Shown one piece after another: positions 21,334 through 42,057 of a stretch of DNA of 50,145 bases. The translations under genes were made by a program, and so were the position numbers. This DNA is from a virus (lineage: Duplodnaviria; Caudoviricetes). A model generated the notes under the pieces. That model was not told the origin of the DNA, made no database searches, and saw nothing but the letters and a program-made list of their open reading frames with translations. The stretch is from positions 1-50,145 of IMG/VR virus record IMGVR_UViG_3300006224_000001; one strand, 5' to 3'. Every line of letters begins with the position of its first letter. Positions within the stretch are counted from its first letter, which is position 1.

Positions 21334-21340
21334 AGATACT

Positions 21341-25640: not shown

Positions 25641-25669
25641 TTGCGCATATTAGAAACTTCTAATACAAT
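25641..25669 (+). promoter_or_regulatory. Sigma70 promoter with an ATTAG-N6-CTAAT palindrome in its spacer
   Basis: TTGCGC-17-TACAAT; palindrome at 25649-25664. Confidence 0.7.
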
Positions 25670-25721
25670 TGGAGAAGTATAGCCTTATCAACCTAATGCC
25701 GATACGGCACTGGAGAACGCC

Positions 25722-26489
25722 ATGATTCTGAATAGCGCACGTAGACTGACAATCAACCTGACCACGGCGGCCACTTCGCTGAACATGCCCGTACTGGTCG
25801 ATTACATGGATTACAACGGCGTTTCGATGCGCCCTGGAACCCAAACATCCACAACAAACGGGACTACTGCGGTAGATATTGTATTCGCTCCCGACAGCCA
25901 GACTCAGCGAGAAATCACCCTCATCCAGATTTACAACCGCGACACAGCGGCAAAGACTGTGCAGATCGCTCTGATCGACAACGGTACATCTTTCAACCTA
26001 CAAGACGTAACTCTTCAAGTCGATGATGTACTTACATACACCGATGAGGGCGCATGGAAAGTCACCGATGTAAACGGTAACACCAAGTCAACCTCAACGA
26101 TTGCTGGTCTTCTGTCCACTTCTGCATCTACTGGAATCGGTTACGCAACCGGAGCGGGCGCGGCAGTAACTCAGATTACTAACCGTTCGACTGGCGTAAC
26201 GATCAATGCGGTATGCGGAACAATTCAAACAGACACGACTTCATTAGCCGCTGGAGCAAGCGCAGAATTCACCGTAACCAATAGCGCGGTAGCGATTGGC
26301 GATGTGGTTGTAGTATCTCAACGCTCTGGCTCTGCTTTGGTTGCTGGTGTTGCAGGAACTACGATTGTCGAGGTTGTAACTGTTGCCGCAGGTTCATTTA
26401 TCTTGTCGGTAAATAATAACTCTTCAACTACGGCGGAGACTGGCGCAATCATTATAAACTTCGCCGTTATCAAGGCCGTGGCATCTTAG
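25722..26489 (+). CDS. Putative virion structural/fibre protein; N-terminal domain paralogous to 46989..48167
   Basis: Thr/Ala/Gly-rich; GIGYATGAG.AVTQ.T.RSTGVTIN C-terminal domain. Confidence 0.7.
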   Translation: MILNSARRLTINLTTAATSLNMPVLVDYMDYNGVSMRPGTQTSTTNGTTAVDIVFAPDSQTQREITLIQIYNRDTAAKTVQIALIDNGTSFNLQDVTLQVDDVLTYTDEGAWKVTDVNGNTKSTSTIAGLLSTSASTGIGYATGAGAAVTQITNRSTGVTINAVCGTIQTDTTSLAAGASAEFTVTNSAVAIGDVVVVSQRSGSALVAGVAGTTIVEVVTVAAGSFILSVNNNSSTTAETGAIIINFAVIKAVAS

Positions 26490-26505
26490 AAATAAGGCTT
26501 AAACC

Positions 26506-26823
26506 ATGAAACCAGGCACAATCCAACTCGGCAATGCTTCCTTGCACATCAGTTACCCACAGATTGTGCCAGGGAATCTTCGGGGATTTTCAAGGGAGAT
26601 AACCGAGTTCTTTGTACCTGAAGAGTTTAGAGGTAATGGTGAGGGAACAGAGTTACTTAAAGATGTCTGCGACCAAGCTGATGCAGAGCATATTCTGCTT
26701 TTACTGATCGCAGACACCGAAAAGATGGCAATGTATTACGGACGGTTCGGATTTGTTGCGATTCAGGATAAGCCAATCTTGATGGTAAGAAGCCCGAAGA
26801 GTGAGTTAATTAGCATCCACTAA
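26506..26823 (+). CDS. GNAT-family acetyltransferase-like protein
   Basis: FVPEEFRGNGEGTELL (motif A) and YYGRFGF. Confidence 0.8.
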   Translation: MKPGTIQLGNASLHISYPQIVPGNLRGFSREITEFFVPEEFRGNGEGTELLKDVCDQADAEHILLLLIADTEKMAMYYGRFGFVAIQDKPILMVRSPKSELISIH

Positions 26824-26869
26824 TATTCGAATGTAGTACTCTAACGCTGTGATAGCGCCGAGGATTCAA

Positions 26870-29209
26870 ATGGAAGATGACAGCGCAATAGAAGTAGAAG
26901 ACACTGGCGACCGCGATATTATCGCAGAGGCTCACGAAAGATGGGAGCGAGCTGAGAACGCCTATCGAACGACTCGCCAACTTGCTATTGCTGACACTCA
27001 GTTTGCTATGGGTGACTCTGATAATATGTGGCAATGGCCTTCCGAGGTGTCCTCTTCCAGAATTGGTGATCGCCGTGTATGTCTGACGATTAACCTCACA
27101 GCTCAGCACTGTAACCAGATTATTAATCAGATCAGACAGAATCGCCCCGCTTGTCGGGTGATGCCTGTTGATGATTACTCAGACAAAAAGACCGCAGAAA
27201 TCCTGGCCGGTCTTATCCGTAACATCCAATCTACAAGCAACGCTGATGATGCTCATGATATAGCGGCTGAACATGCGATTTATGGCGGTGAGGGATATTG
27301 GAGGGTACTAACTGATTACGAGTCTCCTGCTTCGTTTAATCAGGTCATTAAGATCAAGTCTATCGCTAATCCGTTCTTGGTTTATATCGACCCCGATGCT
27401 ATCGAGCCAGACAAGTCGGATGCCGAGTGGGGATTCATCTTTGAAGACGTTCGCAAAGAAACCATTAAGCGTGAATATCCAGAACTCAAGAACGATATTT
27501 CAAGCTGGAATCTCGACAAGAAAACGCAATGGGTGACTGAGGATACAGTTCGTATTGCTGAATACTATTGCGTTGAGTACGTTAAAGACAAAGCCATTCT
27601 TCTTTCTGATGGAACTTCGCTATTGGAAAGTAAATTAGATGATGGTGTTGTACGTGATGGCATGATGCTTGTTAACGAATTATCAGGACAAACAATCGAA
27701 ATCATCAAAGAGCGTGATACATTCCGCAAACAGTGGAAATGGTACAAGCTTATTGGGAAACATTCAAAGCCGGTAGATTCTCGTGATTGGCCGGGGGAAT
27801 ACTTACCTATCATTGCTGTGGTAGGCAAAGAGGTAAACGTAAACGGTGAAATTATCCGCAAAGGTATCGTCAGGGACTTGAAAGACCCAGCGCGGATGAC
27901 GAACTACGCCTATTCCGAGACTGTACAGGCTATCGCGCTACAGAACAAAATCCCTTATCTTGCTGCGGCAGATTCGATTGAAGGCTATGAGACTGATTGG
28001 GCGAACGCAAATATAAGCAATAAGGCTTATCTTCCTTTTAATGCTTATGACGACGAAGGCAATCCTCTACCGAAACCAGAACGGCAACAGCCTGCCGTAA
28101 TGCCTGCCGCACAGATTCAGCTTTTGCAACTCTCCACGGAAGAGATGCGGGCATCTTCAGGCCAACAGAATGCGAACTTTGGGATTAAGTCAGAAGCTTC
28201 GAGCGGTGTAGGTATTCAACGACTGAAGGCTCAAGGCGAAATCGCAACATTCCATTTTCCTGATAACTTGGCTCGTGGTCTTAAATATGAGGCTGTAGTT
28301 CTAATCGACCTCATCCAGAAGGTTTACGACACTAAGCGGGTAGTTCGAGTGCTTGGTTTGGATGGAAACATGGAACATGCCGTCCTTGACCCGAATCATC
28401 CAGAGGCCTATGGAGAACAGCAAACGACCGCCGATGACATCCAAAAGATATTCAATCCATCTTTGGGGCAATATGATGTAGTAATCGATACTGGCCCATC
28501 ATTCCAGACTCAACGGCAGGAAGGTTATGCATCGATGATGGAACTCGCCTCCCGTAATCCTGCTTTGATGCAGATCGCTGGGGATATCATCATGAGAAAT
28601 GCTGATTATCCAGGCGCAGACAAGATCGCCGACCGTTTGGCTAAAGCTCTACCTCCTAACCTTCAGGAACAAAAAGGCGGAACAGAACAACAACTAGCCC
28701 AAGTCAGCCAGCAAGCCATGCAGATGCAGCAACAAATGCAGATGATGAGCCAACAGCTTCAAGAGACTCAGGCCGCACTGCAACAAGCCGAGAGCGGAGC
28801 GCAAAAGACCCAGCTTGAAATGCAATACAAGATGCAATTGGCAGAGTTTGAATCTCAAGTTGAAGAACAGAAACAAGTTCGAGCGTTAGAGGCTGAATTC
28901 AGGATTGAAGCATATCGTTCTCAACTAGAAGACCAGCGCCGTCAACGCGAGATTCAGGCAGAACTGTATAAAGCAGAGCAGGAAGCCAAGGCCAAACGCG
29001 AAGCCGAAGGGATTGCCATGGCTGGTGAGCTAGCTCGTTCTCATCAAGAATCATGCAAGGAAGTCCAGATAGCAGACATGAACAACCAAAGCCGCGAAGA
29101 TATTGCAGAACTGAATGCGGTTGTTGAACTTGCCAAGGCTGGAATGGAAAACGCCGCACTGACTGCTGACGTTAATAAAGACCTGAAAGACGAGGGGAAT
29201 AATGCCTAA
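26870..29209 (+). CDS. P22-like portal protein
   Basis: QWP, RP/CLTIN, GIVR.LKDP.R..NY, SG..I and G.YDV.IDTGPSF.TQR motifs; long C-terminal coiled coil. GAGGA RBS favours the ATG at 26870. Confidence 0.93.
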   Translation: MEDDSAIEVEDTGDRDIIAEAHERWERAENAYRTTRQLAIADTQFAMGDSDNMWQWPSEVSSSRIGDRRVCLTINLTAQHCNQIINQIRQNRPACRVMPVDDYSDKKTAEILAGLIRNIQSTSNADDAHDIAAEHAIYGGEGYWRVLTDYESPASFNQVIKIKSIANPFLVYIDPDAIEPDKSDAEWGFIFEDVRKETIKREYPELKNDISSWNLDKKTQWVTEDTVRIAEYYCVEYVKDKAILLSDGTSLLESKLDDGVVRDGMMLVNELSGQTIEIIKERDTFRKQWKWYKLIGKHSKPVDSRDWPGEYLPIIAVVGKEVNVNGEIIRKGIVRDLKDPARMTNYAYSETVQAIALQNKIPYLAAADSIEGYETDWANANISNKAYLPFNAYDDEGNPLPKPERQQPAVMPAAQIQLLQLSTEEMRASSGQQNANFGIKSEASSGVGIQRLKAQGEIATFHFPDNLARGLKYEAVVLIDLIQKVYDTKRVVRVLGLDGNMEHAVLDPNHPEAYGEQQTTADDIQKIFNPSLGQYDVVIDTGPSFQTQRQEGYASMMELASRNPALMQIAGDIIMRNADYPGADKIADRLAKALPPNLQEQKGGTEQQLAQVSQQAMQMQQQMQMMSQQLQETQAALQQAESGAQKTQLEMQYKMQLAEFESQVEEQKQVRALEAEFRIEAYRSQLEDQRRQREIQAELYKAEQEAKAKREAEGIAMAGELARSHQESCKEVQIADMNNQSREDIAELNAVVELAKAGMENAALTADVNKDLKDEGNNA

Positions 29210-30665
29210 CGCTCTTTCTAGATTGGTTGAAGATAGACGCGCAAAACTGGCGCGTGAAATGTCTCATCTAAATTCTAGAGGACAAGGCGAAAGCATAGAC
29301 ACAATGCGGGCAAACGCTATAGCCAGATTGAAAGCAGCGCCAGGACAGGCCGCGCAGGGAATGTTTACCGGAATTGCAGGAGCTCCGGTAGACATAGCAA
29401 ACATGGCATTGCGCCCGTTTGGACTAGGCTCTGAAAATCCGGTAGGCGGGTCTAACTCTCTTGCCAAAATGATTAACGCCGATACCCAAAGTACTCCATA
29501 CCAAGTAGGTACGATGCTACCTATAAGCCCTACTGATGTAGCTCAGGGATTGCCGTTAATGGCCGGGATATTCGCAGGCCGTGGTGCAAAGACTGCTAAC
29601 CTTTCCGCATTGGTTAAAGCCGAAGAAATGGCAAAGGCTGGCATTCCTGACGCACAAATATGGAAAGAAACAGGCTGGACACTGAATACGCCGGACAAGA
29701 TGCCGAGGTTTGAGATACCGGATAATCGAATGATGTACCGTGGCACTCAAAACGGAAGCTACGCAGATCAAGTAATTCATCATCCTGAATTATTCGGAGC
29801 ATATCCGCAATTAGGCGGCGGAAGGATACGAGAAGTTGCTGGAACTGGCGGTTCGTATGCAGATCATCCTATGGGAGGCATGGGAACTATAGAGTTAGGT
29901 ACTGATGGGTTTGTTGCTGATACTGCTGCGCATGAACTGCAACACGCCATACAATCGCGCGAAGGGTTCGCTAGGGGCGGGAGTCCTGAGATGTTTAACC
30001 AAGCAGGAGACGCAGAACTAGCTAAAGACGCACTATCATGGAAGCAAGAGCTTTTGCGGAAGCGTGCCGAAATGCCTAATGCTGATTGGATTGCGGTTGA
30101 AAATGCAGCAGTTCAAGACTATCAAAAGATGGGAATGATGGACATGTTGCCGAGCAGAGAAGCGCGAGATTTAGCGCGTCAACCGGCCGTTTTGCACCCT
30201 GATAAATATCCGAACCAGACAGACCTGCAAGATTTGGAAGGACTCGTTTCAATGTACGGGCTGGATAAACGAACATCGCCAGCAAAGCCGGTGGATTTAT
30301 ACAATCGCCTAGCCGGAGAAGCCGAAGCCCGCCTAACTCAATCACGCATGAACCTAACCCCAGAGCAACGCCTAGCCCAATATCCATATGAGCCGCAATA
30401 CTTCGAGCAAGCAACAGGCGTACCGCTGAGTAGCTTGATTGTGCGTAAAGAAGGTGGCAACGCCATGAGCATACCAGAAAATGAAAACGCCATGACAAGA
30501 CTAATCCGCGAAGCCCAAGCCCAAATAGACGCAGAGAACGCAGCTAAGAACTTGATACGCTATCAGCCAGAATCGCATCGTGTTAGGAATGCGCTGATTG
30601 GGTTGGGTGCTGGAGGTGCTGGGGTAGCTGGTGGATATTATGGGGCGGATTATTTGAGTAGGTGA
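29202..30665 (+). CDS. LPD23-like domain plus zincin (HExxH) protein, probable internal virion protein
   Basis: IWKETGW...D..PRFEI.D, HPELF.AYP.L, HELQHAIQ..EGFARGG and Y.RLAGEAEAR motifs. Confidence 0.8.
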   Translation: MPNALSRLVEDRRAKLAREMSHLNSRGQGESIDTMRANAIARLKAAPGQAAQGMFTGIAGAPVDIANMALRPFGLGSENPVGGSNSLAKMINADTQSTPYQVGTMLPISPTDVAQGLPLMAGIFAGRGAKTANLSALVKAEEMAKAGIPDAQIWKETGWTLNTPDKMPRFEIPDNRMMYRGTQNGSYADQVIHHPELFGAYPQLGGGRIREVAGTGGSYADHPMGGMGTIELGTDGFVADTAAHELQHAIQSREGFARGGSPEMFNQAGDAELAKDALSWKQELLRKRAEMPNADWIAVENAAVQDYQKMGMMDMLPSREARDLARQPAVLHPDKYPNQTDLQDLEGLVSMYGLDKRTSPAKPVDLYNRLAGEAEARLTQSRMNLTPEQRLAQYPYEPQYFEQATGVPLSSLIVRKEGGNAMSIPENENAMTRLIREAQAQIDAENAAKNLIRYQPESHRVRNALIGLGAGGAGVAGGYYGADYLSR

Positions 30666-30857
30666 TTATTCATCTTCGTCTTCATATTCATCTGTAAATG
30701 AAAGATGATGGCCTTTATGCTCAAAAAGGAATGATTCTAGCCTTTTAAGAGCTTCGTCACTTTTCCACAACTTATCTCCATAAGAAATACTTCCTGATGC
30801 GATAGTCTCTACTCTCTTATTGCAGTCATTGCAAACCAAATGGTAATCAGTGCTCAT
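30666..30857 (-). CDS. Hypothetical zinc-binding protein
   Basis: MSTDY.L.C.DC...FL.EH.GH motif. Confidence 0.65.
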   Translation of the reverse strand: MSTDYHLVCNDCNKRVETIASGSISYGDKLWKSDEALKRLESFLFEHKGHHLSFTDEYEDEDE

Positions 30858-31054
30858 TATTTATACTCCAAATGATATCCAGGGTGCACAAAGGAATTCA
30901 CAATCTTAGCCTGCCCGTAATCTTTGCGAAACTTCCGGATAGCGGCATTCATATCAACATCTTCAACTTCGCATTGGCGGATTGGTGATAATTGGGCAAG
31001 ATGGTTTAGATCGTTCGGTTTTGTTTCTGGCATATAGGTGAATATGAATTTCAC
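30857..31054 (-). CDS. Hypothetical protein
   Basis: Coupled ORF in the inverted cassette. Confidence 0.55.
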   Translation of the reverse strand: MKFIFTYMPETKPNDLNHLAQLSPIRQCEVEDVDMNAAIRKFRKDYGQAKIVNSFVHPGYHLEYK

Positions 31055-31245
31055 TTCAACTTCTCCCCATAAGGCGGCAACCCCATAGCAAACGCAGAAG
31101 CCGCTAGAGCGATGTTTTTAGGGATTGGGAATCCTAGTACCTCGTAATTGTAAATAGACCGCTGAGAGCATCCTAGAGCCTCTGCGGTGGCTATTTTGGT
31201 GAGGCGGAAACGCTTGCGGAAGGTGATTAGGTCGGATTGGGTCAT
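31051..31245 (-). CDS. XRE-like HTH protein
   Basis: MTQSDL..FRKRF.LTK...AEALGCS.RSI.NYE...PIP..IALA motif. Confidence 0.8.
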   Translation of the reverse strand: MTQSDLITFRKRFRLTKIATAEALGCSQRSIYNYEVLGFPIPKNIALAASAFAMGLPPYGEKLK

Positions 31246-31493
31246 TCGATTGTCTTTGTAAGAAAAATAGGGGCAGGGCGTTGAATTGCGGTTATATGGC
31301 ACAGCATTTCAAACTGTTTGGCTAGTTGGGCGTTGAGTAAGGTATTTTCTTGCTGGTGACGTTCGTGCATATCTCGTATTTCACGCCTCAGCGATTCAAT
31401 CTTTTCTGCCGCCTCAAGTTCAATATCGCCATGCCATGCGTATTCGTCATACTTATGTGCGCGCTCACGCAATCTATCAACAATATCAGCCAT
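31242..31493 (-). CDS. Hypothetical protein (DIVDRLR...EAA..IE.LR family)
   Basis: GAGG RBS; common phage motif. Confidence 0.7.
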   Translation of the reverse strand: MADIVDRLRERAHKYDEYAWHGDIELEAAEKIESLRREIRDMHERHQQENTLLNAQLAKQFEMLCHITAIQRPAPIFLTKTIE

Positions 31494-31593
31494 ATATCAC
31501 CTCTTAAATAACGCCTAAATATTAGCATATTTTCCTTAATTCGTGTATTCAATCGGCAAAAATAGACAATATCTATATAAATCAGCATTATAC

Positions 31594-31622
31594 TTGCATA
31601 CATTAGAAATGTCTGATATTCT
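31594..31622 (+). promoter_or_regulatory. Scaffold/coat promoter with ATTAG-N6-CTGAT in its spacer
   Basis: TTGCAT-17-TATTCT; palindrome at 31602-31617. Confidence 0.65.
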
Positions 31623-31698
31623 AATACTAAGGAATACCAAATATTCCTTGCCAATGGAGGCATCCCTTGCCTAATTCCGTGAGGAACTGGAGATGTAA

Positions 31699-32553
31699 AT
31701 GAGCGAAAGCCAAGACGCAGTACAAGTAGCAGAACAAGCAACACAAGAAGCGCAAGAAATTGCGAATCAGAATCAAGAAACAGAAGCACTTGAAGCCGCA
31801 CAAGACAAAACGGCGACTGATGAGACGGCGACTGAGGCTGACTCACAAGAAAAAGACACTCAGGCGGATGAAAAGAAGTTCACTCAAACCGAGTTGGACG
31901 ATATCATCAAGAAACGAATTGCGAAGGCCTCGGCCATAGCGGAGAGAAAAGCAGCAAAGGCTTATGCGGAAAAACTTGAGCAGCTTGCAGTTAAGCCTCA
32001 AGAACAACGCCAAGCAGCGACAGTAGAAGGTAAACCAAAACTTGAGCAGTTTGAGAAGGTTGAGGATTATGTCGAAGCTGTAGCTGACTGGAAGTTGAAA
32101 ACCGCACAGCAAGAGCAGTCCCGTCAGTACGAAGCACAGAGAGTTAAACAGGCTCAAAGCGAAGTCCAGGCAAAGGCGCAGAGTGTATTTGAACTCGCCG
32201 AGCAAGACCCTGAATTTGACAATGAAGTGTTTGAGGCTCTGCCAGTGTCCGACCCTATGGCTTATGCCATTATGGATAGTGATATTGCTCCTAAACTGAT
32301 GGTGTACTTGCAAAAGAATCCGGAAGAAGTAGATCGGATTAATAAGCTCTCTCCTGCAAGGCAAGCGGCTGAAATCGGAAAGATGGAAGCTAAACTTTCC
32401 GTGGTTGAAAAGGTTAAACCGTCTAGCGCACCTGCACCGATTAAGCCTGTTGGCAGTCGGGGCGGCGCACCAAGCGGAAACCCTGCTGAAATGACCCAGG
32501 CCCAATATGAGGCGTTCAGGGCGAAGCAGGGGGCTTCTTGGGCAAGACGATAG
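31699..32553 (+). CDS. Scaffolding protein
   Basis: Acidic helical protein with FTQ.ELD.II.KR, P.LEQF...EDY, LSP.RQA.EIGK.E and SAPAPI.P; directly upstream of the coat gene. Confidence 0.88.
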   Translation: MSESQDAVQVAEQATQEAQEIANQNQETEALEAAQDKTATDETATEADSQEKDTQADEKKFTQTELDDIIKKRIAKASAIAERKAAKAYAEKLEQLAVKPQEQRQAATVEGKPKLEQFEKVEDYVEAVADWKLKTAQQEQSRQYEAQRVKQAQSEVQAKAQSVFELAEQDPEFDNEVFEALPVSDPMAYAIMDSDIAPKLMVYLQKNPEEVDRINKLSPARQAAEIGKMEAKLSVVEKVKPSSAPAPIKPVGSRGGAPSGNPAEMTQAQYEAFRAKQGASWARR

Positions 32554-32599
32554 TTATTTTTGATTAACTCATATGCCGTGAGGCTTTAGGAGAAAAAAC

Positions 32600-33817
32600 A
32601 TGAGTAATACCCTTGCAACATCGGCGATTGTCGCCAAAGAAGCACTTGCCATTCTGAAAAACAATCTCGGTTTCGCTCAGAACGTGAACCGTAATTGGGA
32701 AGATGAATTCGGCGGGAACATGGGGCGTGGTTATGAGCCGGGCCAAACGATCAACATCCGAAAACCTCCGCGTTATACCTATCGTGATGGCCGCGTAGCT
32801 GTTCCTCAAGCTACTACCGTTTCGACTGTTCCGCTGACTCTCTCTCAGGGTGGATGTGATATCAGCTTTACCAGCGCAGAGCGTACTGTGTCTATTTCGA
32901 CGCAACGTCTGCAAGAAGTGGTTGAAGCCGCGATGAATCCTGTATTGAACGAAATCGACCGCCGTGGTCTGGAATTGGCACGTTATGCTACCTTTAACGC
33001 GCTCAATCCAACTTATGCCGCGCCCAATACCGCCGCTCTGGCAATGGCCGCTGCAACTGGCGTAAATCGTCGTTTGGATGAAATGGCCGCGCCGAAACAA
33101 AATGACGGTAAGCGTTCAATGGCTTTGAATCCAGGTCTGAATGCTAACTTCATTACCGGCTTCTCTGGTCTGTTCAATAACGCTGCCACTATCGGTAAGC
33201 AATACGACTCCGGCGTGATGGTAAATGCGATTGGTATCAAGTATTTCATGGACCAAAACATTTCCACTCATACCAATGGCGCAGGTACAGCATCGAACGT
33301 GAATGGTGCAAACCAAACTGGTTCGACGATCACTGTAGCAGCTACTGGTGCAGGCACAATCACTCGCGGCACTCGCATCACTCTACCGGGTGTATTTGCA
33401 GTCAATCCTGTATCTCGTCAAAGCACTGGTGTATTGATGGACTTCATCATCACTGCTGACGTTCCTGTAGGTTCAACATCGCTGCCGATTTCTCCGGCTA
33501 TCGTGACTACTGGCGCATTCCAGAACGTAACTGCTTCGCCGACTACCGGCCAGCCGTTTGTTATCTTTGGTGCGGCTTCTACTAGCTATGCGTGTAACGT
33601 CGGTTATCATCGCGATGCCTTTACTTTGGCTTGTGTTCCGATGGCTGCTGTTCCGGCTGGTACTGGCGCGAAGTCTTATGTTGCAACTGACAATAACCTG
33701 TCGGTTCGTGTAACTGAGGGCTTCGACATCACCAATGACAACAGCATCACTCGTATTGATGTGTTGTACGGTTACGCTGCTACTTACCCGGAATTGGCTT
33801 GCGTTTACGCAATCTAA
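32600..33817 (+). CDS. Major capsid protein (P22 gp5-like)
   Basis: EAL.IL.NNL, GQTINIRKPPRY, GVFAVNP.SRQSTG and RIDVLYG....PELA motifs. Confidence 0.95.
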   Translation: MSNTLATSAIVAKEALAILKNNLGFAQNVNRNWEDEFGGNMGRGYEPGQTINIRKPPRYTYRDGRVAVPQATTVSTVPLTLSQGGCDISFTSAERTVSISTQRLQEVVEAAMNPVLNEIDRRGLELARYATFNALNPTYAAPNTAALAMAAATGVNRRLDEMAAPKQNDGKRSMALNPGLNANFITGFSGLFNNAATIGKQYDSGVMVNAIGIKYFMDQNISTHTNGAGTASNVNGANQTGSTITVAATGAGTITRGTRITLPGVFAVNPVSRQSTGVLMDFIITADVPVGSTSLPISPAIVTTGAFQNVTASPTTGQPFVIFGAASTSYACNVGYHRDAFTLACVPMAAVPAGTGAKSYVATDNNLSVRVTEGFDITNDNSITRIDVLYGYAATYPELACVYAI

Positions 33818-33822
33818 AAATA

Positions 33823-33846
33823 CCTCGGCGGTTAATTCTGCCGAGG
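33823..33846 (+). other. Intergenic hairpin after the coat gene (no U-tract)
   Basis: CCTCGGC/GCCGAGG stem. Confidence 0.55.
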
Positions 33847-33871
33847 ATTAACGAAATTTAAGGAGAACAAC

Positions 33872-34594
33872 ATGGCTGTTTATCTTTTGCAATCTTATGG
33901 TGGCTTTCCGGCTTCCGCAACAAATCCGGTAATCTTCCCGCCTTCCACTGAGGCGGCATTGATTGCTGATGGTCGCGCAACTGCTGCTGGTATTACCAGT
34001 GGTGAAAATACTCGTGGTGGCCCCGGCTACTTCGCAACCCAAGGCGGCAATAAGGCAATGGTTGACCAAGCTGGTCTTGGCCGTGATGTAGCCAACGTCA
34101 ATAAAGCGCCGTTGATTTCGACGGCTATCCCGATGGGTTCGCTGGCTTTGACAAGCTACGAAACCAACGGCACAGCCCCAACTGCTGGCACGATGTACCT
34201 GACCGAAATCAACATCTATGCGGCTCAGACCTATACCGGCATTGGCGTATTGAACGGCACGACTGTCGGAACTGATAACCATCTGGTGGCTTTGTATGGC
34301 GCTGATGGCACTTTGCTGGCTAACTCTGCTGTGGCTGGCGCTTTGTCGGCTGGCGCTTCGGCTTGGCAAGATCGGGCCTTTACTGCGCCGATTACGCTGA
34401 TTCCAGGTCGTTACTTCCTCGGCGTTCAATCCAATGGCACGACTGCTACTTTGCGCCATCTGGAAACCGCTCTGGGTGCGACTAACAGCACTGGTGCACA
34501 AGCTGGTACGTTCGGCACTGTGCCTGCGACATTGACGACCGTTCCTGTGACGATCACCAATGCGCAGGGCGTGATTTCGAGATTATACGTCTAA
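33872..34594 (+). CDS. Putative capsid decoration protein
   Basis: Directly after the coat gene with an AAGGAG RBS; A/G/T-rich beta composition. Confidence 0.6.
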   Translation: MAVYLLQSYGGFPASATNPVIFPPSTEAALIADGRATAAGITSGENTRGGPGYFATQGGNKAMVDQAGLGRDVANVNKAPLISTAIPMGSLALTSYETNGTAPTAGTMYLTEINIYAAQTYTGIGVLNGTTVGTDNHLVALYGADGTLLANSAVAGALSAGASAWQDRAFTAPITLIPGRYFLGVQSNGTTATLRHLETALGATNSTGAQAGTFGTVPATLTTVPVTITNAQGVISRLYV

Positions 34595-34612
34595 TCAGTA
34601 ACTTAGCATTGC

Positions 34613-34639
34613 CTGCCCATTCTTCGGAGTGGGCAGTTT
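34613..34639 (+). terminator. Hairpin with C(UUCG)G tetraloop, probable terminator
   Basis: CTGCCCATTC-TTCG-GAGTGGGCAG-TTT. Confidence 0.7.
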
Positions 34640-34665
34640 AAGCTGAATTACAAAAGGACAAAGAC

Positions 34666-34944
34666 ATGGCCGCGAATCAAACCCAAATCATGCTGAAAGG
34701 GATTATCCCTGATGGTACTCCGCTGGCAGTAGCCGTTCCAGTTACTATGCAGCTTCCTGGCTCTATCACTCTTAAATCTGCTGCCGCTGGGCGATTGATT
34801 GAGCTTTCGACTGATGGAGGTGTCGAATACTTCACCCCATCACTTGATATTCAATCAGCAACAATGCAGATTGTTGTTGTGAATTCTCCCATTACTCATT
34901 TCCGAGTGACAGGCGCTGCTGCTGATACTTATTTGGTGAGTTAA
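34666..34944 (+). CDS. Putative small virion protein
   Basis: IELSTDGG.EY and THFRVTG beta-sandwich pattern. Confidence 0.6.
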   Translation: MAANQTQIMLKGIIPDGTPLAVAVPVTMQLPGSITLKSAAAGRLIELSTDGGVEYFTPSLDIQSATMQIVVVNSPITHFRVTGAAADTYLVS

Positions 34945-34945
34945 T

Positions 34946-35392
34946 ATGGCCTATCCTAACGTTAGCTCCGACCCGTCTTCTAAATCGCCAGTCGCCAAGG
35001 TAATGACCAATGGCGATACGATCTTTACCGTAACTGGTGATATTCTGGTTTTTGGCCTTGCATCTGAGTGCTACACAGCAAACGGCGCTACCGCTTCAAC
35101 GCTTCAATATCAGGTAGTGAATGCAAACGGAACAACTACTATTAGCGGAGCTTCGGCAAGTCTGGCGAATGCTGCTATTGGGGTGAGCGTGATTGCTCAA
35201 TTAGGCGCATTGGCAAATGCTCCGGTTGTATCGTCTGCGTCTGGCGTTGGTGTGTTTCCGTGGGGTGCGGTACGCGTTCCAGGAGGCAGTACGATTCGCA
35301 TCGTAATTGGCGTGGGAGCCACGACAGGAACGTGGAAGCATTACCTCACATATAAACGTTTTGAGCCAGGCGCATTCGTAACGGCAAATTAA
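34946..35392 (+). CDS. Putative virion protein
   Basis: IFTVTG...W...Y...EPGA.V pattern within the structural block. Confidence 0.6.
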   Translation: MAYPNVSSDPSSKSPVAKVMTNGDTIFTVTGDILVFGLASECYTANGATASTLQYQVVNANGTTTISGASASLANAAIGVSVIAQLGALANAPVVSSASGVGVFPWGAVRVPGGSTIRIVIGVGATTGTWKHYLTYKRFEPGAFVTAN

Positions 35393-35404
35393 TGGTATCC
35401 ACTA

Positions 35405-36415
35405 ATGGCATACCCCGAACAAAATATAAACGGGTTCAAAGACCATTATGGTACGCAACAATATATTGCGCCTAATGGCGAATTGGTATCTGTTCCGCTT
35501 TATAAACTGATCGGTGATGTCTTTACTGGTACAACATTAGATACTAATTTCTGGACTATAAGCACAGGAACTGGCGGGGCGGCTAGTATTATTGCTGGTG
35601 AATTAATATTAGATACAGGAACAACAGCTAATAACGCAACAGAAATTACATCGGTTAGAACAGCAAGGTTTTCTGGCCTTGCTCCAAATAAAATAAGAAT
35701 TGTAGTTCAATTGCCAGATACAGGAGTTGCGAACAACTCTAGGCATTGGGGGATGGGAGTATTTAACGGCTCAATCATAACGAGCGGCGCTGTGTTCCAA
35801 ATGAACGGAACAAATTTTGAACTAGTTACTTATAAAGCTGGAGTTGCGGCTACTATTGCCAATGGAACTTTCAACGGGCAATATGGGAAAACGTTTGCCC
35901 CTGGCCTAAATTCTCATTTCTACGAAATTATCTACCAGCCCAGACAAGTAATCTGGCTGGCTGATAATAAAATAATTCATACGCTGTCTGCCGCATCTAT
36001 TACATGGACTGATGAATATCACTTACCTATTCACATGGGATGTGAAAATAGCGGTGGGCTTGCCCAAAGCGTAACAATGAAATCAAGAATTGCCACAGTA
36101 GCCAGATTTGGCATTTCAGACATGCTCCCGACTTCCGCGTTTATTAGCGGGCTTAATGCGGGACAGATTCTTAAAAATACACCGGGGAATATACATAGCA
36201 TAACATTTGGAGCAATTACAAATAATGCCGTAGTGACGTTTTATGATACAGCGACACTTCCAATACCGGTAGGAGCTAGGGTTATTTGGTCAACTGGTGG
36301 AATGGCAAGCAACACGGTTCCATTCGATATTGCAGGAGATAAATCGCCTTTTCATATTGGATTAACGATAGCAATTACAGTGGCTTCCGCAAATGCGTGG
36401 GTTAAGTATGAGTAA
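35405..36415 (+). CDS. Putative virion protein with lectin-like beta-sandwich
   Basis: D.FTGTTLDT..W and H.YEI.......W..D....H patterns. Confidence 0.55.
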   Translation: MAYPEQNINGFKDHYGTQQYIAPNGELVSVPLYKLIGDVFTGTTLDTNFWTISTGTGGAASIIAGELILDTGTTANNATEITSVRTARFSGLAPNKIRIVVQLPDTGVANNSRHWGMGVFNGSIITSGAVFQMNGTNFELVTYKAGVAATIANGTFNGQYGKTFAPGLNSHFYEIIYQPRQVIWLADNKIIHTLSAASITWTDEYHLPIHMGCENSGGLAQSVTMKSRIATVARFGISDMLPTSAFISGLNAGQILKNTPGNIHSITFGAITNNAVVTFYDTATLPIPVGARVIWSTGGMASNTVPFDIAGDKSPFHIGLTIAITVASANAWVKYE

Positions 36416-36469
36416 CGCCTCCCTCTAACGCTGTGAAGCGCTGAGGGAGTTTATGAATAAGAGGTTTGT

Positions 36470-37438
36470 ATGTCAGTCACAGCCGGAACTTTGATAAATG
36501 ACGCATTATTTGAACTTGGCGTACTGGCCGAAGGTGATACGCCGACGACTGAAATGTCTAACTTGGCTCTCCGCGTCCTTAATCGGATGTTGGATTCGCT
36601 GAGTACCAATCAATCATTTGCTTACTTTCCGAACCTCTACACATGGCCGTTGACTGGTGAAGCTCAGTTTTACATCGGCCCTGCTTTAACTGCCACTTTC
36701 ACAGTAACGATTGCTGCGCCCGGAGTGTTTACTAGCGCCTCTCATGGTCTTAACATCGGCGATACGATCACATTGACTACAACTGGAGCTTTGCCTACTG
36801 GCCTCGCTACCGGGACAACGTACTACGTCATAACCGATGGATTCACAACCAGCACATTCCAACTATCGGCCACGAGGGATGGGACAGCGATTACAACTAC
36901 CGGCACACAGTCCGGGACACACACTTTTACACAGACAAGCTCCCTGACAAAGTATGTCGGGCAACGGCCTATCGGTATCGAATCGGCTTACCTTGAACGT
37001 TCAGGGATTCACTATCCTGTCCGTGTGGTGGATAACCAGATTTTCGACAGCATCATTTACCCTGCGGCGAGTGGAGCGAATACGGTTTATATCTGGTACG
37101 AAGCACAAGAACCTAACGGAATTCTTCATTGTTGGCCTTTGGCTTCTGGATGTACTTTAGGACTTCGTATCGTTAATCAAGTTGTGAATTTCACCGATTT
37201 GGTAACTGCGCAGATTCTCCCGCCTGGATATGAAGAATGTATTGTAAGCAATCTCTGCGTGAGACTTGCTCCTTTCTATCCTTCTGTAAGTCTTTCTCCG
37301 GTGACGGTGCAGAATGCTAAATCTTCTCTGAATATGATTCAGCGTAGAAATAACGTTATTCCCACTATGTCACTGCCGACTGCGGTGACGGTGAATAAGG
37401 GTGGGTTCTCGCTGGCTAACTTCTTGAGTGGGAACTAA
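36470..37438 (+). CDS. P22 gp4-like head-tail adaptor with an inserted ~85-aa domain
   Basis: LI.DAL.ELGVLA.G.TP...AL..LNRML and LPPGYEE....NL..RLAP motifs; insert at about 36685-36935. Confidence 0.82.
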   Translation: MSVTAGTLINDALFELGVLAEGDTPTTEMSNLALRVLNRMLDSLSTNQSFAYFPNLYTWPLTGEAQFYIGPALTATFTVTIAAPGVFTSASHGLNIGDTITLTTTGALPTGLATGTTYYVITDGFTTSTFQLSATRDGTAITTTGTQSGTHTFTQTSSLTKYVGQRPIGIESAYLERSGIHYPVRVVDNQIFDSIIYPAASGANTVYIWYEAQEPNGILHCWPLASGCTLGLRIVNQVVNFTDLVTAQILPPGYEECIVSNLCVRLAPFYPSVSLSPVTVQNAKSSLNMIQRRNNVIPTMSLPTAVTVNKGGFSLANFLSGN

Positions 37439-37440
37439 CC

Positions 37441-37599
37441 ATGCCATTCTCAAAAGCGCAAAATTCCTTGTTCAGACTTGCCGCTCATAATCCAGAAGTT
37501 GCAAAGGCTAGAGGCATCTCAATGGAAACCGCAAAGCGTTTAGCGAGTGAAGGCGTCAAACGAAAGAAGAACAAACTATCAGAAAAGGCAAAAATATGA
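37441..37599 (+). CDS. Small basic hypothetical protein
   Basis: Manual translation MPFSKAQNSLFRLAAHNPEVAKARGISMETAK...; ATGA overlap with the next gene. Confidence 0.65.
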   Translation: MPFSKAQNSLFRLAAHNPEVAKARGISMETAKRLASEGVKRKKNKLSEKAKI

Positions 37600-38057
37600 A
37601 AACTTCCGACCTGCAAGCTAAGATGGGCAAAAAAACTACCGAAGTGACCGAGAAACCGGAAACCAATGCGCAAGAGCAAACGGAAATGGCACAAGAGAAT
37701 CCGCACCCGATTAACCAACTCACGGCGCGGGTGTTTTCTGCTCGTAACGCTGCCCATAGAGCGCATTTACTGACTAAATCATTTTCTGAACATTCTGCAC
37801 TAGGTTCATTCTATGATGATGTAATCGGCGCGATGGATTCGATTATCGAAACCGATCAGGGAATGTACGGCCTTATCGGTGACTTCACCATCGAGGATGT
37901 AAAGCCTACCGACTTTGCGAAATTCGTCCGTGAGGAAGCAATGTGGATTGAGCTAAATCGAGATAAATTCTCAAAATGCGCGGCGACATTAGCATTGATT
38001 GACGATCTGACTGCTATTTATCTGCGGACTGCCTATAAACTGACGAATTTGAAGTAA
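37596..38057 (+). CDS. Ferritin/Dps-like four-helix protein (DUF5856-like)
   Basis: AH.AHL.TKSFSEH.ALG.FYD.....D.I.E..QG.YG...YKL..LK motif. Confidence 0.72.
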   Translation: MKTSDLQAKMGKKTTEVTEKPETNAQEQTEMAQENPHPINQLTARVFSARNAAHRAHLLTKSFSEHSALGSFYDDVIGAMDSIIETDQGMYGLIGDFTIEDVKPTDFAKFVREEAMWIELNRDKFSKCAATLALIDDLTAIYLRTAYKLTNLK

Positions 38058-38067
38058 GGAATCCGCC

Positions 38068-41000
38068 GTGAAGATGCCGGATTTTAACTCAGGGAATGAC
38101 GTACAGCGCAGCTTGAATCTTGCTGATAATCGCTGTGTTAATCTTTATCCAGTAACCGATGATAGCGGGACGATAGCGGCGTTTTACTCAACGCCTGGAC
38201 TCCTTGCCTACACTTCCGCTGCCTCGGCCTTCTCCGGCCTCTATACCGCGTCCAATGGGCGCTGTTTCGGCGTTTCTGGTACGATTCTATATGAAATCAC
38301 AACTGGTGGAGTTTTAACCAATCGCGGAACTGTTACCACTGCCTCAGTCAGCAAAATGTCAGACAACGGCATTGAACTGATTATCGTCAATGGCACGGAT
38401 GCATGGTTATTTACTTTTGCGACAAACGCACTAAAGAAAATCTCTACGCTGAGCGCAGATTTCACGGTGACTATTGCCAGCCCTGCGGTATTTTCTACTG
38501 TAGCGGCTCATGGTCTTGTGGCTGGGGATGCGATTCAACTTACCACAACATCTGGAAGTAATACGACAAGCGGAGTTTTGACAGCAAGTACTGCATCTCC
38601 GATTACGGCTCCTGATTATGTAACCTCTGTAATCACATCGCCAGATAGCCAATATGTTTATATTGCGACAAACAATGTAAATGGATATATCTATCAATAT
38701 ATACGAGATCAAGTTACAGGAGATTTATCGCCGTTAAGCCCTGCTTTTATCCCTATCCCCGGAGGGTATGGTAGTTCAATATGTTATTGCCTCGAAATAA
38801 CATCGGATGGAGCTTTTATTTTTGCGGGGTCTGGCGGTTCAATCCATACATTTTCAAGAAATGCAGTTACAGGGCAAATAACTTGGATTTCTGCTACTAC
38901 TTATGCTATTCAAACTTTCTATTCTATTAAACTATCATCTGATGGGACGTCGTTATATGCATATGGGAAATCTGGATTTTCTCCGCTCGTTCCAAATATT
39001 TATCAGTATAGTGTAAATCCTGCTACAGGAACAGTCACACCATTAAGTCCCGCCACTATCTCAGCATCGTTAGATACTGTTTATAGTTCGGCAATTTCTT
39101 CGAATGCTGGAACAACGCAAACATTGTATGTTCTTTCGCCATCTACAAATTTGATTCAATGTTATACCAGAACGGTAGCTACTGGATTGCTTACAGCAAT
39201 TACATCGGTTGCTACTGGTGCGGGGTCTGTTTCGATCATTATATCGCATGATAACGCGCACGTTTATGTGAGTTGTACAAATGCGATAAGGCATTACACC
39301 AGAAATACAGGGACTGGTGTAATTACACTAGCAGACACGTTAACGACTACCAATAATCCATCTCAATTAGTTATCAGCGCAGACGACACATGCGTTTATG
39401 CTTCCTCTCCTGATGGCGTAGTGATGGAATTTGACCGGAATACAACTACAGGCGTATTGACCGCAATGAGTACGCCGACTGTTCCTGCTGCCGGGACAAT
39501 CAACGCTATTGCTATCACAGCTAACGGAAAATCTGTCTATGCGATGAGCTATGGCCCTGTAGGTGCTTCGTTTACGTACATGTTCCAGCGTCAACAGTCA
39601 TCCTCTAATGTTGGACTCCCAACAGGACTAGACACGCTAACGACTTACTACGTCATAGCCGCAGGTTTAACTGCTACCAATTTCGAAGTATCTCTAACTG
39701 CTGGCGGAACTGCTGTAAACACATCCGGAGTCCAGGCTGGTATCCATACGTTTCACACACTCGGAAACGGATTCCCGAATGGTGCCAAGACAATTTCATA
39801 CATCGACGGACGCTTTGTAGTCTGCCAGCCAAACACGCAAAACTTCTATGTCTCAGATGTCCTAGCCGGGGGTACTTGGGATGCACTGAATGTTCAGACT
39901 GCCGACTCTAACCCTGACATGATTGTCGGACAGATTACTCTGCATAACGAACTAATCGTATTCTGCGAACAGTCGGGAGAAACATTCTATGACTCTGGAA
40001 CCTATCCCGCTCCATTCGTTCGTAACGTGTCGGGTATTTTCGAGGTAGGTTGTATCGCGCCGTATTCGATAGCAAAAATAGATAACTCTGTCATGTGGCT
40101 CGGGAAGAGCAACACAGGCCAAGGCGTGATTTATAGATTGAACGGTTACACTCCCGTAAGACTTTCAACTTATGCGATAGAGTACGCCATTCAAACCATG
40201 ACCACGATCAGTGATGCAATGGCTTTCACTTATCAGCAGGAAGGGCATCACTTCTACGTCATCACTTTCCCGACAGGAAACCGTACATTCGCATTCGATG
40301 TGAATACAGGATTATGGCATGAACGTGCCGGATGGAATGGGGCTACATTAAGTCGCTGGGCCGCGCAAGAATATACTTATTTTGATGGTAAACATCTTAT
40401 CTGTGATTACGCATCAGGGAATATTTATAGCCTTGATCTTGGTACATATACAGATGGAGTGAATGCTAAAAAGTGGATTCGTTCATGGAGAGCGCCTGCC
40501 TCGGATATGAAACGGGTGATTCATAATAAGTTGACACTTGAAGCAGAAGTCGGTGTAGGGCAAGGTTCTTTTTCAACCACTGGTGTAGTTAATTCTATTA
40601 CTTTGTCTAATCCAGGATCGTCAAGTAAAACTGTTTTATGGAATGCCGCAGTATCTTCAGGAATTACTGATATGACCGTATATGGTATTTCATGGAGCGG
40701 AAGTATCTATGTTGCTGTTGGAATGGGTAATACATATGGTTCTGACTGGACAATAAATTATTGTTATACATCTCCAGATGGTGTCGTATGGACAAAAAGA
40801 ACAATGACAATTACCCAGTTTTGGTATGGAGTTAGTTGGAATGGTTCTGTTTTTTGTGCAGTTGGTAATGGACAAACTTGCAATACGAGCCCAGATGGTA
40901 TCACTTGGACTGCAAGAACCATGTCTTCTGTTCAGTCGCATTATGCGATTACATATGGAGCTGGCTTCTTTGTTGCATGTGTTAATGGAGAGGCATTTGA

Positions 41001-41973
41001 AACTTCTCCAGATGGTATAACATGGACTGCCAGAAACGACCCAGGATCGGGAGGTATATCATGGTCTTCTATAACCTATAACGGAACTGCTTTTATTGCT
41101 ACTGCATTTTATGGAAGTACTGCGGCAACAGCTGCTTACTCAACAGATGGGATTACATGGGTATCAAAAACATTGCCATTTAATCAAAAATGGTGCGTAT
41201 CTTCTATTTCAACTGGATTTGTCGCATTGAGTAACGGAACTAATTACGCAACATCTCCAGACGGCATTACATGGACTGCAAGAACATTTCCTGTTGCGCT
41301 TTCTATTAAAACTGGAAATCAATTTATCAGTGGTGGCGGAGTTCATGTTATAGCCAATTCTGGAACAAATAATTCCTATGTTTCTGAGGATGGGATAACT
41401 TGGACGCTAGATGCAATTCCAGGCGTTTTAGCCATGTGGGGAGCGGCTACATATAACGGAACAAATATTGTTTATATGTCTGCAACTTCTGGCGGAGGTT
41501 ACACTTCTGCTTTTACATCTGGGCCCGCCGGATATAATGTCGGGCCTCACGCTATAATTTTTACCGGAGGAACTCCAACTGTTGCGGCGACTGGTACATA
41601 TACTATTAGTTCGATTACAGGAGAAATATCTTCTACGGTAATTACCAATACAGGGTCTGGATATATAACAACACCGACCGTTTCTTTTCCTTCTGGCGGG
41701 ATTATAGGAGCGATAGGTTCGGCTAATTTGACATGGACAAGTAGTTTTAATCCGACAGGAATAGAACCCACTGTTAACTTGAAATATTCCAATGATGGAG
41801 GACATACATGGTCTACCGATAATTGGAGGAGTATGTCTCTCGGAACAATCGGACAATATTCAAAACGTGTATTTTGGTATCGCTTGGGAATGACTACAGG
41901 ACAGGTTAGGTTATATGAGTTGAGCGGTCAAAGTCCCGTAAAAACGGTACTTTTATCAACATATCTTGAATGA
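38068..41973 (+). CDS. P22 gp10-like tail hub/DNA stabilisation protein, expanded by nested beta-propeller inserts
   Basis: NRCVNLYP..TPGL, SDNG, YIDGRFV, GCIAPYS, YQQEGH.FY and YSNDGGHTWS...G.IGQY.KRV.W.RLG motifs. Confidence 0.9.
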   Translation: MKMPDFNSGNDVQRSLNLADNRCVNLYPVTDDSGTIAAFYSTPGLLAYTSAASAFSGLYTASNGRCFGVSGTILYEITTGGVLTNRGTVTTASVSKMSDNGIELIIVNGTDAWLFTFATNALKKISTLSADFTVTIASPAVFSTVAAHGLVAGDAIQLTTTSGSNTTSGVLTASTASPITAPDYVTSVITSPDSQYVYIATNNVNGYIYQYIRDQVTGDLSPLSPAFIPIPGGYGSSICYCLEITSDGAFIFAGSGGSIHTFSRNAVTGQITWISATTYAIQTFYSIKLSSDGTSLYAYGKSGFSPLVPNIYQYSVNPATGTVTPLSPATISASLDTVYSSAISSNAGTTQTLYVLSPSTNLIQCYTRTVATGLLTAITSVATGAGSVSIIISHDNAHVYVSCTNAIRHYTRNTGTGVITLADTLTTTNNPSQLVISADDTCVYASSPDGVVMEFDRNTTTGVLTAMSTPTVPAAGTINAIAITANGKSVYAMSYGPVGASFTYMFQRQQSSSNVGLPTGLDTLTTYYVIAAGLTATNFEVSLTAGGTAVNTSGVQAGIHTFHTLGNGFPNGAKTISYIDGRFVVCQPNTQNFYVSDVLAGGTWDALNVQTADSNPDMIVGQITLHNELIVFCEQSGETFYDSGTYPAPFVRNVSGIFEVGCIAPYSIAKIDNSVMWLGKSNTGQGVIYRLNGYTPVRLSTYAIEYAIQTMTTISDAMAFTYQQEGHHFYVITFPTGNRTFAFDVNTGLWHERAGWNGATLSRWAAQEYTYFDGKHLICDYASGNIYSLDLGTYTDGVNAKKWIRSWRAPASDMKRVIHNKLTLEAEVGVGQGSFSTTGVVNSITLSNPGSSSKTVLWNAAVSSGITDMTVYGISWSGSIYVAVGMGNTYGSDWTINYCYTSPDGVVWTKRTMTITQFWYGVSWNGSVFCAVGNGQTCNTSPDGITWTARTMSSVQSHYAITYGAGFFVACVNGEAFETSPDGITWTARNDPGSGGISWSSITYNGTAFIATAFYGSTAATAAYSTDGITWVSKTLPFNQKWCVSSISTGFVALSNGTNYATSPDGITWTARTFPVALSIKTGNQFISGGGVHVIANSGTNNSYVSEDGITWTLDAIPGVLAMWGAATYNGTNIVYMSATSGGGYTSAFTSGPAGYNVGPHAIIFTGGTPTVAATGTYTISSITGEISSTVITNTGSGYITTPTVSFPSGGIIGAIGSANLTWTSSFNPTGIEPTVNLKYSNDGGHTWSTDNWRSMSLGTIGQYSKRVFWYRLGMTTGQVRLYELSGQSPVKTVLLSTYLE

Positions 41974-42001
41974 GAAAATAAGCATATTCTAATTTAGATT
42001 A

Positions 42002-42010
42002 TGCTATAAT
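42002..42010 (+). promoter_or_regulatory. Extended -10 promoter for the ejection-protein genes
   Basis: TGcTATAAT, preceded by ATAAG-N6-CTAAT (41978-41993). Confidence 0.65.
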
Positions 42011-42057
42011 TTAACGGAAGAATTTCTAACGCCTTGGTGGCGCTGAAAGGAACTAAA

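Follow-up and report, generated by a model that had tools for sequence, protein, structure and literature searches.

In the 50,145-nucleotide (nt) genome of a tailed virus (Duplodnaviria; Caudoviricetes; IMG/VR record IMGVR_UViG_3300006224_000001, positions 1 to 50,145, hereafter called the window), it was found that a small RNA motif of two helices recurs five times on the + strand, each copy ending 8-20 nt before an ATG. The helices covary among related viruses, and the 3′ strand of the outer helix runs into the Shine-Dalgarno sequence of virion genes. The sense-strand location, the covariation, and the fixed register with the start codon indicate that the element belongs, as far as sequence can tell, to the general kind of cis-regulatory RNA structures at the ribosome-binding site. 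As for its role, the reading that I prefer, tentatively and with a little less than even confidence, is that a structured element of the messenger RNA (mRNA) is built into the ribosome-binding site of virion genes, where it would act on translation initiation.

A sequence-only reading of the window had written out five copies, and all of them were found letter for letter at the same positions and on the + strand. Each copy consists of an outer strand, UAA, an inner hairpin, CY (Y, pyrimidine), and the second outer strand. Copy 1 (25692-25713; CC-UAA-UGCCG-AUA-CGGCA-CU-GG; 19.8 bits, E-value 0.01) has a 3′ arm that continues into GGAG, ahead of the g25722 gene (ATG at 25722), and orthologous copies are present in two related loci, L001 and L023. 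Copy 2 (26839-26862; CUC-UAA-CGCU-GUGAU-AGCG-CC-GAG; 25.0 bits) precedes the portal gene (ATG at 26870) with GAGG as the Shine-Dalgarno sequence, and copy 3 (31670-31690; CC-UAA-UUCC-GUGA-GGAA-CU-GG; 36.7 bits) precedes the scaffold gene (ATG at 31699) with GGAG. Copy 4 (36419-36449; CUCCCUC-UAA-CGCU-GUGA-AGCG-CU-GAGGGAG; 44.3 bits) has a 7-base-pair (bp) outer helix, is the minimum-free-energy fold of its leader, and is followed by a separate downstream Shine-Dalgarno sequence, AAGAGG, before the ATG of the adaptor-like gene at 36470. An out-of-frame ATG at 36453, 3 nt after GAGGGAG, opens a short frame (36453-36494) overlapping this true start, and coupling might make use of this small upstream frame. 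In copy 5 (42023-42048; UUUC-UAA-CGCC-UUGGU-GGCG-CU-GAAA; 21.7 bits), which precedes the gene of a gp7-like ejection protein (ATG at 42058), the sequence GAAAGGA is complementary to the host-type 3′ end of 16S ribosomal RNA (rRNA).

The inner stem was also said to persist, in a looser copy, before the coat gene (ATG at 32600). The sequence at 32570-32592 (+) does keep GCC-GUGA-GGC and AGGAG; the closing C-G pair, the UAA, and the CY have been lost, and covariance model R1, described below, does not detect it even at E ≤ 10. Because relatives have true copies at the orthologous position, this coat-leader remnant is read as a decayed copy.

The five copies are not a product of chance. In a strict scan, a match had to have two or more Watson-Crick pairs in the outer stem, then TAA, then 4-6 pairs in the inner stem around a loop of 3-6 nt, and finally CY. 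The scan gave five matches on the + strand of the window and none on the - strand, whereas dinucleotide-preserving shuffles (n = 300) gave a mean of 0.22 and a maximum of 2, with none of the 300 reaching five. An equal frequency in shuffled sequence, the objection that the sequence-only reading had raised against itself, was thus not found. When all 1024 internal loops with 3 nt on one side and 2 nt on the other were compared, TAA/CT was the commonest with four matches (the fifth copy is TAA/CC), against a mean of 0.13 per combination. The 20 copies on which covariance model R1 was trained all have the same geometry; relatives supplied 18 of them and the window two. Run over the whole window with filters off, the model returned the same five sites at E ≤ 0.01, three of them outside the training set, and the next match had an E-value of 3. 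The folding energies of the copies are unremarkable, with z-scores from -1.4 to +0.5 and with the motif being the minimum-free-energy fold in two of the five. Thus, thermodynamics alone offers no explanation for the motif, which fits a structure stabilized by a partner.

Is the motif conserved in related viruses? Thirty-two IMG/VR loci with a related portal (26-87% identity) were taken as the portal-selected set. The strict scan found 23 sense-strand copies in 12 of these loci, as well as two identical antisense matches (L011 and L012) that have no start codon after them. R1 gave 40 matches at E ≤ 1 in the window plus the 32 loci, all 40 on the gene strand and 39 of them just upstream of a start codon. 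The genes that follow encode coat proteins (11, tandem pairs included), portals (10), scaffolds (8), adaptor-like proteins (5), g25722-like proteins (3), and an ejection protein (1); one more match precedes an unassigned small frame, and one is followed by no gene. In the alignment of the R1 matches, 96.5% of the cells are paired, compared with 74.7% in shuffles, and 66 cells carry changes on both sides of a pair where 16.7 were expected, a value that none of 500 shuffles attained; the alignment was fitted to the model and so favours the structure, and the alignment-free strict scanner gives the same picture. When the pairing partners were slid against each other, pairing fell to 33-60%. The inner helix is 100% paired, and all four inner pairs covary, as do two of the three outer pairs. 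The strand bias and the U-G closing pairs indicate that this is an RNA rather than a DNA element. Thus, the covarying structure over virion-gene ribosome-binding sites that had been proposed from the window holds among its relatives.

The motif is also widespread outside this group. A search of viral contigs with the commonest-core pattern returned at least 120 stretches, which gave 119 new loci. Among the matches listed, to which the counts in this paragraph refer, the strict scan counted 129 copies in these loci, and a reading frame starts within 45 nt of 111 of them. For 73 of the 95 distinct downstream proteins an assignment to PHROG families was made; the other 22 were left out because they were truncated or duplicated or because their contig was already included. 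Annotated virion proteins make up 55 of the 73. Major head proteins account for 31, and these fall into five PHROG families (283, 1328, 10, 212, and 371), followed by portals (5), scaffolds (4), ejection proteins (4), major tail proteins (3), other tail proteins (3), further virion proteins (2), adaptor-like proteins (2), and a head protease (1). The remainder comprises 16 proteins without a match, one of an unknown family, and one homing endonuclease, the sole non-virion protein. In phages with a PHROG 1328 head protein (L062, L210, L212, L214, L246, L260, L271, and others), a second copy stands before a conserved gene of about 100 amino acids located right after the head gene; its product has no PHROG match.

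Bacterial genomes were scanned with a tighter, specific pattern, one genome per species for 185,579 species, since a looser pattern had yielded mostly chance matches. There were 36 matches in 34 loci. Complementary stems are present in 24 of them, and 23 of these 24 lie before a start codon at the usual spacing; the 12 matches without complementary stems mostly have no start-codon context, as expected of chance. The five isolate carriers are all Betaproteobacteria: Variovorax paradoxus, V. ureilyticus, V. soli, Hydrogenophaga laconesensis, and Aquitalea palustris. Among the metagenome-assembled carriers, the majority belong to Comamonadaceae, Rhodocyclaceae, Sterolibacterium, or Thiobacillaceae; four, all of them short contigs, were binned to other phyla. 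When nine carrier genomes were scanned with the general pattern, all matches but two fell in prophage-like regions or on short phage-like contigs. One of these two lacks a complementary stem, and the other is inside a 535-amino-acid reading frame on the opposite strand. Two bacterial elements have downstream head proteins of PHROG 1328 and PHROG 10, respectively, with matching scaffold and portal genes nearby. Thus, the carrier phages appear to infect Betaproteobacteria. The coat protein of the Hydrogenophaga element is 61% identical to that of the window, which suggests a host of the Hydrogenophaga kind for the window phage. When the model was run on 151 genomes from the order to which one carrier host belongs, it detected the motif in that host alone (47 candidates per genome were scored, which makes this weak evidence). 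BLAST of the 31-nt copy against GenBank phages gave only matches with E ≥ 3; the one examined, in an intergenic region of Shewanella phage ZP9, precedes a transfer RNA (tRNA) gene, not a start codon.

From 126 distinct copies the consensus C-UAA-CGCN-GNGA-N′GCG-CY-G was obtained (N, any nucleotide; N′, its complement). The UAA/CY internal loop, which had been called invariant, is so in all five copies of the window and nearly so elsewhere: the 5′ side is UAA in 120 copies, CAA in 3, AAA in 2, and CAU in 1, while the 3′ side is CY in 124 (CU 83 and CC 41) and CA in 2. The pair that closes the loop is C-G in 119 of the 126 and U-G in 6, and the hairpin loop is GNGA in 104. The inner hairpin, mostly CGCN-GNGA-N′GCG, is a very stable helix of 4-5 bp. 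The outer helix has mostly 2-5 pairs. Its 3′ strand coincides with the beginning of the Shine-Dalgarno sequence (2-5 bases); therefore, its 5′ strand copies part of the anti-Shine-Dalgarno tail of 16S rRNA, which for two carrier hosts reads CCUCCUUUCU. Within the message, the outer helix thus mimics the duplex between the Shine-Dalgarno and anti-Shine-Dalgarno sequences. From the G after CY to the start codon there are 9-14 nt in 75 of 119 copies. No conserved bases were seen in the flanks.

What would read such a structure? The sequence-only reading regarded it as a shared translational operator and named the scaffold, the coat, the Ro60 protein, and the protein encoded at 37441 as candidate binders. 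In a classical operator of this sort, a phage-encoded repressor would bind the UAA/CY loop and the hairpin and lock the outer helix over the Shine-Dalgarno sequence, thereby limiting or timing virion synthesis. The conserved unpaired bases, the outer helix that always takes in the first Shine-Dalgarno bases, and the several targets per genome within one functional class are all expected of an operator, and the patchy presence in relatives would fit gain and loss of a regulator gene. The coat proteins of MS2 and PP7 and the RegA protein of T4 are RNA-binding translational repressors. Their targets, as well as those of T4 gp32, are likewise small hairpins with conserved unpaired bases at the ribosome-binding site, and RegA has several target genes per genome, as here. 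Unlike these phage operators, the motif comes with no binder gene that could be found and crosses unrelated phage lineages.

Among the 93 reading frames of the window, no RNA-binding Pfam family was found. Apart from those of the virion module, no protein of the window recurs in other carriers' flanks, where Ro60 has no match at all. When the stretches up to about 20 kb from a copy were compared in six carrier genomes (up to about 30 kb for the Variovorax paradoxus region), no protein family was common to four or more of them. Since the coats and scaffolds of the carriers are unrelated, with at least five unrelated head-protein families among them, and no neighbour protein is shared, neither scaffold nor coat can be the common binder, and Ro60 is an unlikely one; the protein encoded at 37441 is not supported either. 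A truncated gene for a GNAT-like protein (105 amino acids, 26506-26823) lies directly before the portal gene, and it has the same place in 16 of the 32 portal-selected relatives. It was considered as the binder and rejected, as these 16 include loci free of the motif, and only three of the pattern-selected loci have it among the matches listed. An MS2-type operator, whose hairpin has a bulged purine and a loop of four bases and overlaps the beginning of the gene that it controls, was also rejected, given that the geometry differs and that the coats of the carriers belong to five unrelated PHROG families; the Rfam model of the MS2 operator matched no copy and gave a chance-level 11.4 bits (gathering score 40) elsewhere in the copy 3 leader.

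The precedent invoked for the operator was phage P22, whose scaffolding protein autoregulates its own synthesis. In fact, P22 has no copy at the start of any virion gene, and R1 gave one weak match there (E-value 0.051), inside the terminase gene. The portal-to-scaffold gap of P22 is 13 nt and its scaffold and coat genes overlap, so that it has no room for the element. Thus, of the operator proposal, an RNA element shared among virion-gene ribosome-binding sites stands, whereas the link to the P22 scaffold and the named binders do not, and the repressor sense of the word is unsupported. A classical operator with a phage-encoded repressor is unlikely.

The preferred reading, an element acting on translation initiation as part of the ribosome-binding site, can be put as a mechanism. 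The weak outer helix would open and close the Shine-Dalgarno sequence, and the approximately 14 near-invariant bases (C, UAA, CGC/GCG, G.GA, CY, and G) would be the surface recognized by a partner whose gene does not lie next to the element. Unrelated virion modules share the motif, and in the bacterial genomes examined its copies are confined to prophage-like regions and short phage-like contigs. The most probable partner is therefore a general machine of the host, either the 30S subunit or an RNA-binding protein of the betaproteobacterial host; the alternative is a phage factor with a distant gene. A positive or insulating role may be favoured, in which virion genes obtain privileged, independent ribosome entry on long late transcripts and perhaps protection of the message. 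I lean toward such enhancement or insulation, judging from where the copies lie, because the motif marks the first gene of each translational unit, because it is found most often on the most abundant proteins (major head and tail proteins), and because it is sometimes doubled in tandem before coat genes. The fullest form of this idea is that the motif is a "ribosome-entry hairpin" of unrelated Betaproteobacteria phages, read by the host 30S subunit or a host protein, spread as a cassette, and giving virion messages privileged and independent initiation on long late transcripts. In all its parts together, it is a doubtful proposition.

Several observations weigh against the preferred reading. 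The motif is patchy even in close relatives, as strict copies occur in only 12 of the 32 portal-selected loci, and L011, L013, L016, and L021 have no copy upstream of the portal or the coat gene. Searches by flank, by family, and by Pfam identified no reading partner, and a shared phage-encoded binder could lie elsewhere, as the loci cover only part of each phage. No copy is present in Rhodoferax phage P26218, in Methylophilales phage Venkman, or in two podoviruses from spring water; therefore, a general host requirement is not obligatory. Since CGC/GCG is fixed in the pattern-selected sets, the way the copies were selected accounts for part of the inner-stem conservation; in the unbiased, portal-selected set (n = 37), the three inner pairs are C-G in 31, G-C in 34, and C-G in 28. 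Finally, in the window the coat gene, whose product is the most abundant, has only a decayed copy, while the low-copy portal and adaptor have good ones. This weakens the argument from high expression and argues against a simple rule of "more is better".

Another reading is that the motif is an element of message stability or processing. A hairpin at or near the 5′ end of a transcript, whether primary or cut by a nuclease, would protect the downstream cistron from 5′-end-dependent decay, leading to differential expression within the late operon. Stem-loops at the 5′ terminus stabilize messages in E. coli. Transcripts could start at copy 5, which has a TATAAT about 13 nt upstream, and at copy 1, which has a TATAGC about 8 nt upstream; moreover, the copies head translational units. 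However, copies 2 and 4 are in gaps of 46 and 54 nt without any promoter-like site, and protection requires only a stable hairpin, not an invariant UAA/CY loop and GNGA. A stability element is a still weaker candidate than the operator. A partial parallel to the motif is provided by T4, whose mRNAs carry extra-stable C(UUCG)G intercistronic hairpins, likewise recurrent tetraloop hairpins between phage cistrons. The T4 hairpins sit just after stop codons, whereas the motif has a GNGA loop, a second helix, and the UAA/CY internal loop, and lies 5′ of the Shine-Dalgarno sequence, to which it is fused.

It might also be supposed that the motif is a mobile junction cassette, that is, a ribosome-binding-site hairpin which recombines between phages at gene boundaries and whose conservation reflects recent common origin more than function. 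Its occurrence in unrelated virion modules of phages of one host group, the patchiness among close relatives, and the near-identical core sequences of distant contigs would all be accounted for, and there are parallels in the promoter/stem-loop cassettes of T4-type phages and the linker sequences of lambdoid mosaics. On the other hand, compensatory changes keep both helices while the unpaired bases stay fixed across orthologues at 26-87% portal identity, and the strict start-codon register and the restriction to the sense strand also count against it. As a sufficient explanation the cassette is improbable. A regulatory element may also spread as a cassette, so that the two possibilities are compatible.

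A site like the nut sites of lambdoid phages, in which the GNGA hairpin would correspond to boxB and the pyrimidine-rich CUAA to boxA and an antitermination factor would be loaded along the late operon, is very improbable: N peptides do recognize a short stem capped by a GNRA-type fold, the inner hairpin (a 4-5 bp stem with a GNRA-type loop) and the P22-like virion context are reminiscent of boxB, but boxB is a pentaloop and the motif a true tetraloop with a paired, covarying outer helix that includes the putative boxA part and leaves no spacer, there are up to five copies per genome, each 9-14 nt from a start codon, and phages and prophages of several architectures have 1-3 copies, which stand ahead of head or tail genes and not where operons begin.

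Other explanations were tried and rejected. Discontinuous pairing of UAA and GGAG with the 16S 3′ end was dismissed, as UAA is not complementary to the CCUCCUUUCU ends of the hosts, and copies of the GAAAGG class or with long stems place the Shine-Dalgarno sequence in other registers. A pseudoknot between the loop and the flanks was not supported, since complements of the loop in the 60-nt flanks numbered 26 and 25, compared with 25.0 and 25.2 for shuffled loops. In only 7 of 128 copies does the UAA serve as stop codon for the gene upstream, and an upstream stop codon lies within 20 nt of the loop in 50 of the 128. Thus, obligatory coupling to upstream translation is not the rule. The motif is not an intrinsic terminator; none of the five copies appeared in a terminator scan, and a purine-rich Shine-Dalgarno sequence rather than a U run comes next.

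Two further likenesses concern structure. In hairpins that sequester the Shine-Dalgarno sequence, such as RNA thermometers and coupling hairpins, a 5′ strand resembling the anti-Shine-Dalgarno sequence likewise pairs with the Shine-Dalgarno sequence. In contrast to these, the outer helix of the motif is usually 2-5 bp, the folds are not unusually stable, and an upstream stop codon is near only in the fraction of copies just given; thermometers need no conserved unpaired bases, whereas the motif has them. The UA_handle family, which includes the 11-nt GAAA-tetraloop receptor and UAA/GAN, is defined by a U:A trans Watson-Crick/Hoogsteen pair, according to the accessible part of PMC2615604. As described there, these also have a Y-C-U-A-A strand before a helix and a 3-by-2 asymmetric loop closed by C-G. 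Membership by that definition was rejected for the motif, as its opposite strand is C-Y, without the defining adenine (CA in only 2 of 126 copies, the rest being CU or CC in the numbers given above).

The motif is apparently undescribed, as the sequence-only reading had supposed it might be. A search of the whole window against Rfam 15 at E ≤ 1 gave only two tRNAs and a YrlA match, with no family at the motif. The best scores for slices around copy 4 (91 nt) and copy 3 (111 nt) were 14.7 bits against a gathering score of 105 and 11.4 bits against 40, respectively. The literature search found no description of the motif. In its accessible part, PMC10690425 reports 10,006 candidate viral RNA structures, five of them upstream of a major capsid protein family, and the motif may be listed among these candidates. 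No such motif is mentioned in the accessible main text of Weinberg et al. 2017 (PMC5737381).

The virus record is a complete genome of 50,145 bp, and its right half has a P22-like virion module according to PHROG and Pfam. The small and large terminase genes (23002-24781) are followed by g25722, a 255-amino-acid protein of PHROG 18251 whose function is not known, and by the portal (26870-29209; PHROG 156 and Pfam P22_portal), the scaffold (31699-32553; PHROG 8865), and the coat (32600-33817; Pfam P22_CoatProtein). The adaptor-like gene (36470-37438, 322 amino acids) has a homologue that matches PHROG 12985 and the head-tail adaptor Ad3. The module also contains an Hc3-like protein of 1301 amino acids, and the ejection-protein genes start at 42058, where the gp7-like protein matches PHROG 598. 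No close GenBank phage was found at the DNA level, and the best identity of the portal was 42%.

Several features of the late region lie near the copies. Inverted repeats of ATTAGAA/TTCTAAT (25648-25665, 31602-31626, and 41982-42010) are found 34-51 nt upstream of copies 1, 3, and 5, and all three TTCTAATW words (W, A or T) on the + strand of the genome fall at these repeats; TATAAT follows the one at copy 5. These repeats may be late promoters or operators. Three small reverse-strand frames (30666-31302) are located between the gene of an LPD23-domain protein (29202-30665) and the scaffold gene. They interrupt the late region; therefore, the scaffold operon needs its own promoter. A hairpin with a 7-bp stem (33823-33846) lies directly 3′ of the coat gene, and another, with a UUCG-containing loop followed by TTT (34613-34639), lies after the gene that follows the coat. 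These two may be attenuators or 3′ stabilizers.

In the left half, a 442-amino-acid TROVE/Ro60-vWA protein (18179-19507) is encoded just downstream of a match to the Y-RNA-like family YrlA (17863-17965; 50.3 bits, below the gathering score of 69). Since the two adjoin, the phage carries a pair of Ro60 and Y RNA. A TnpB-type gene (IS605 OrfB / Cas12f-like TNB) is present at 14634-15776, tRNA-Met and tRNA-Arg(TCT) genes at 21258-21415, and a gene for an HNH-AP2 endonuclease at 905-1510 on the - strand. A SPFH/Band-7 protein (19878-20869) is followed by a 67-amino-acid protein with a prepilin-type N-methylation motif.

Very few post-transcriptional controls of phage late genes are known, and the motif would join them as a widespread and well-supported RNA family. 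It would provide a sequence marker for the starts of virion genes in metagenomic phages and for assigning such phages to betaproteobacterial hosts. Because carriers include the prophages of cultivable Variovorax, Hydrogenophaga, and Aquitalea, the partner and the mechanism are directly findable. If a host protein reads the structure as a ribosome-entry hairpin, host genes themselves would not use that protein through this motif; if the partner is the ribosome, the motif would be a portable expression part for Betaproteobacteria hosts. Should the ribosome-entry idea prove true, the motif would be a bacterial counterpart of a viral translation enhancer.

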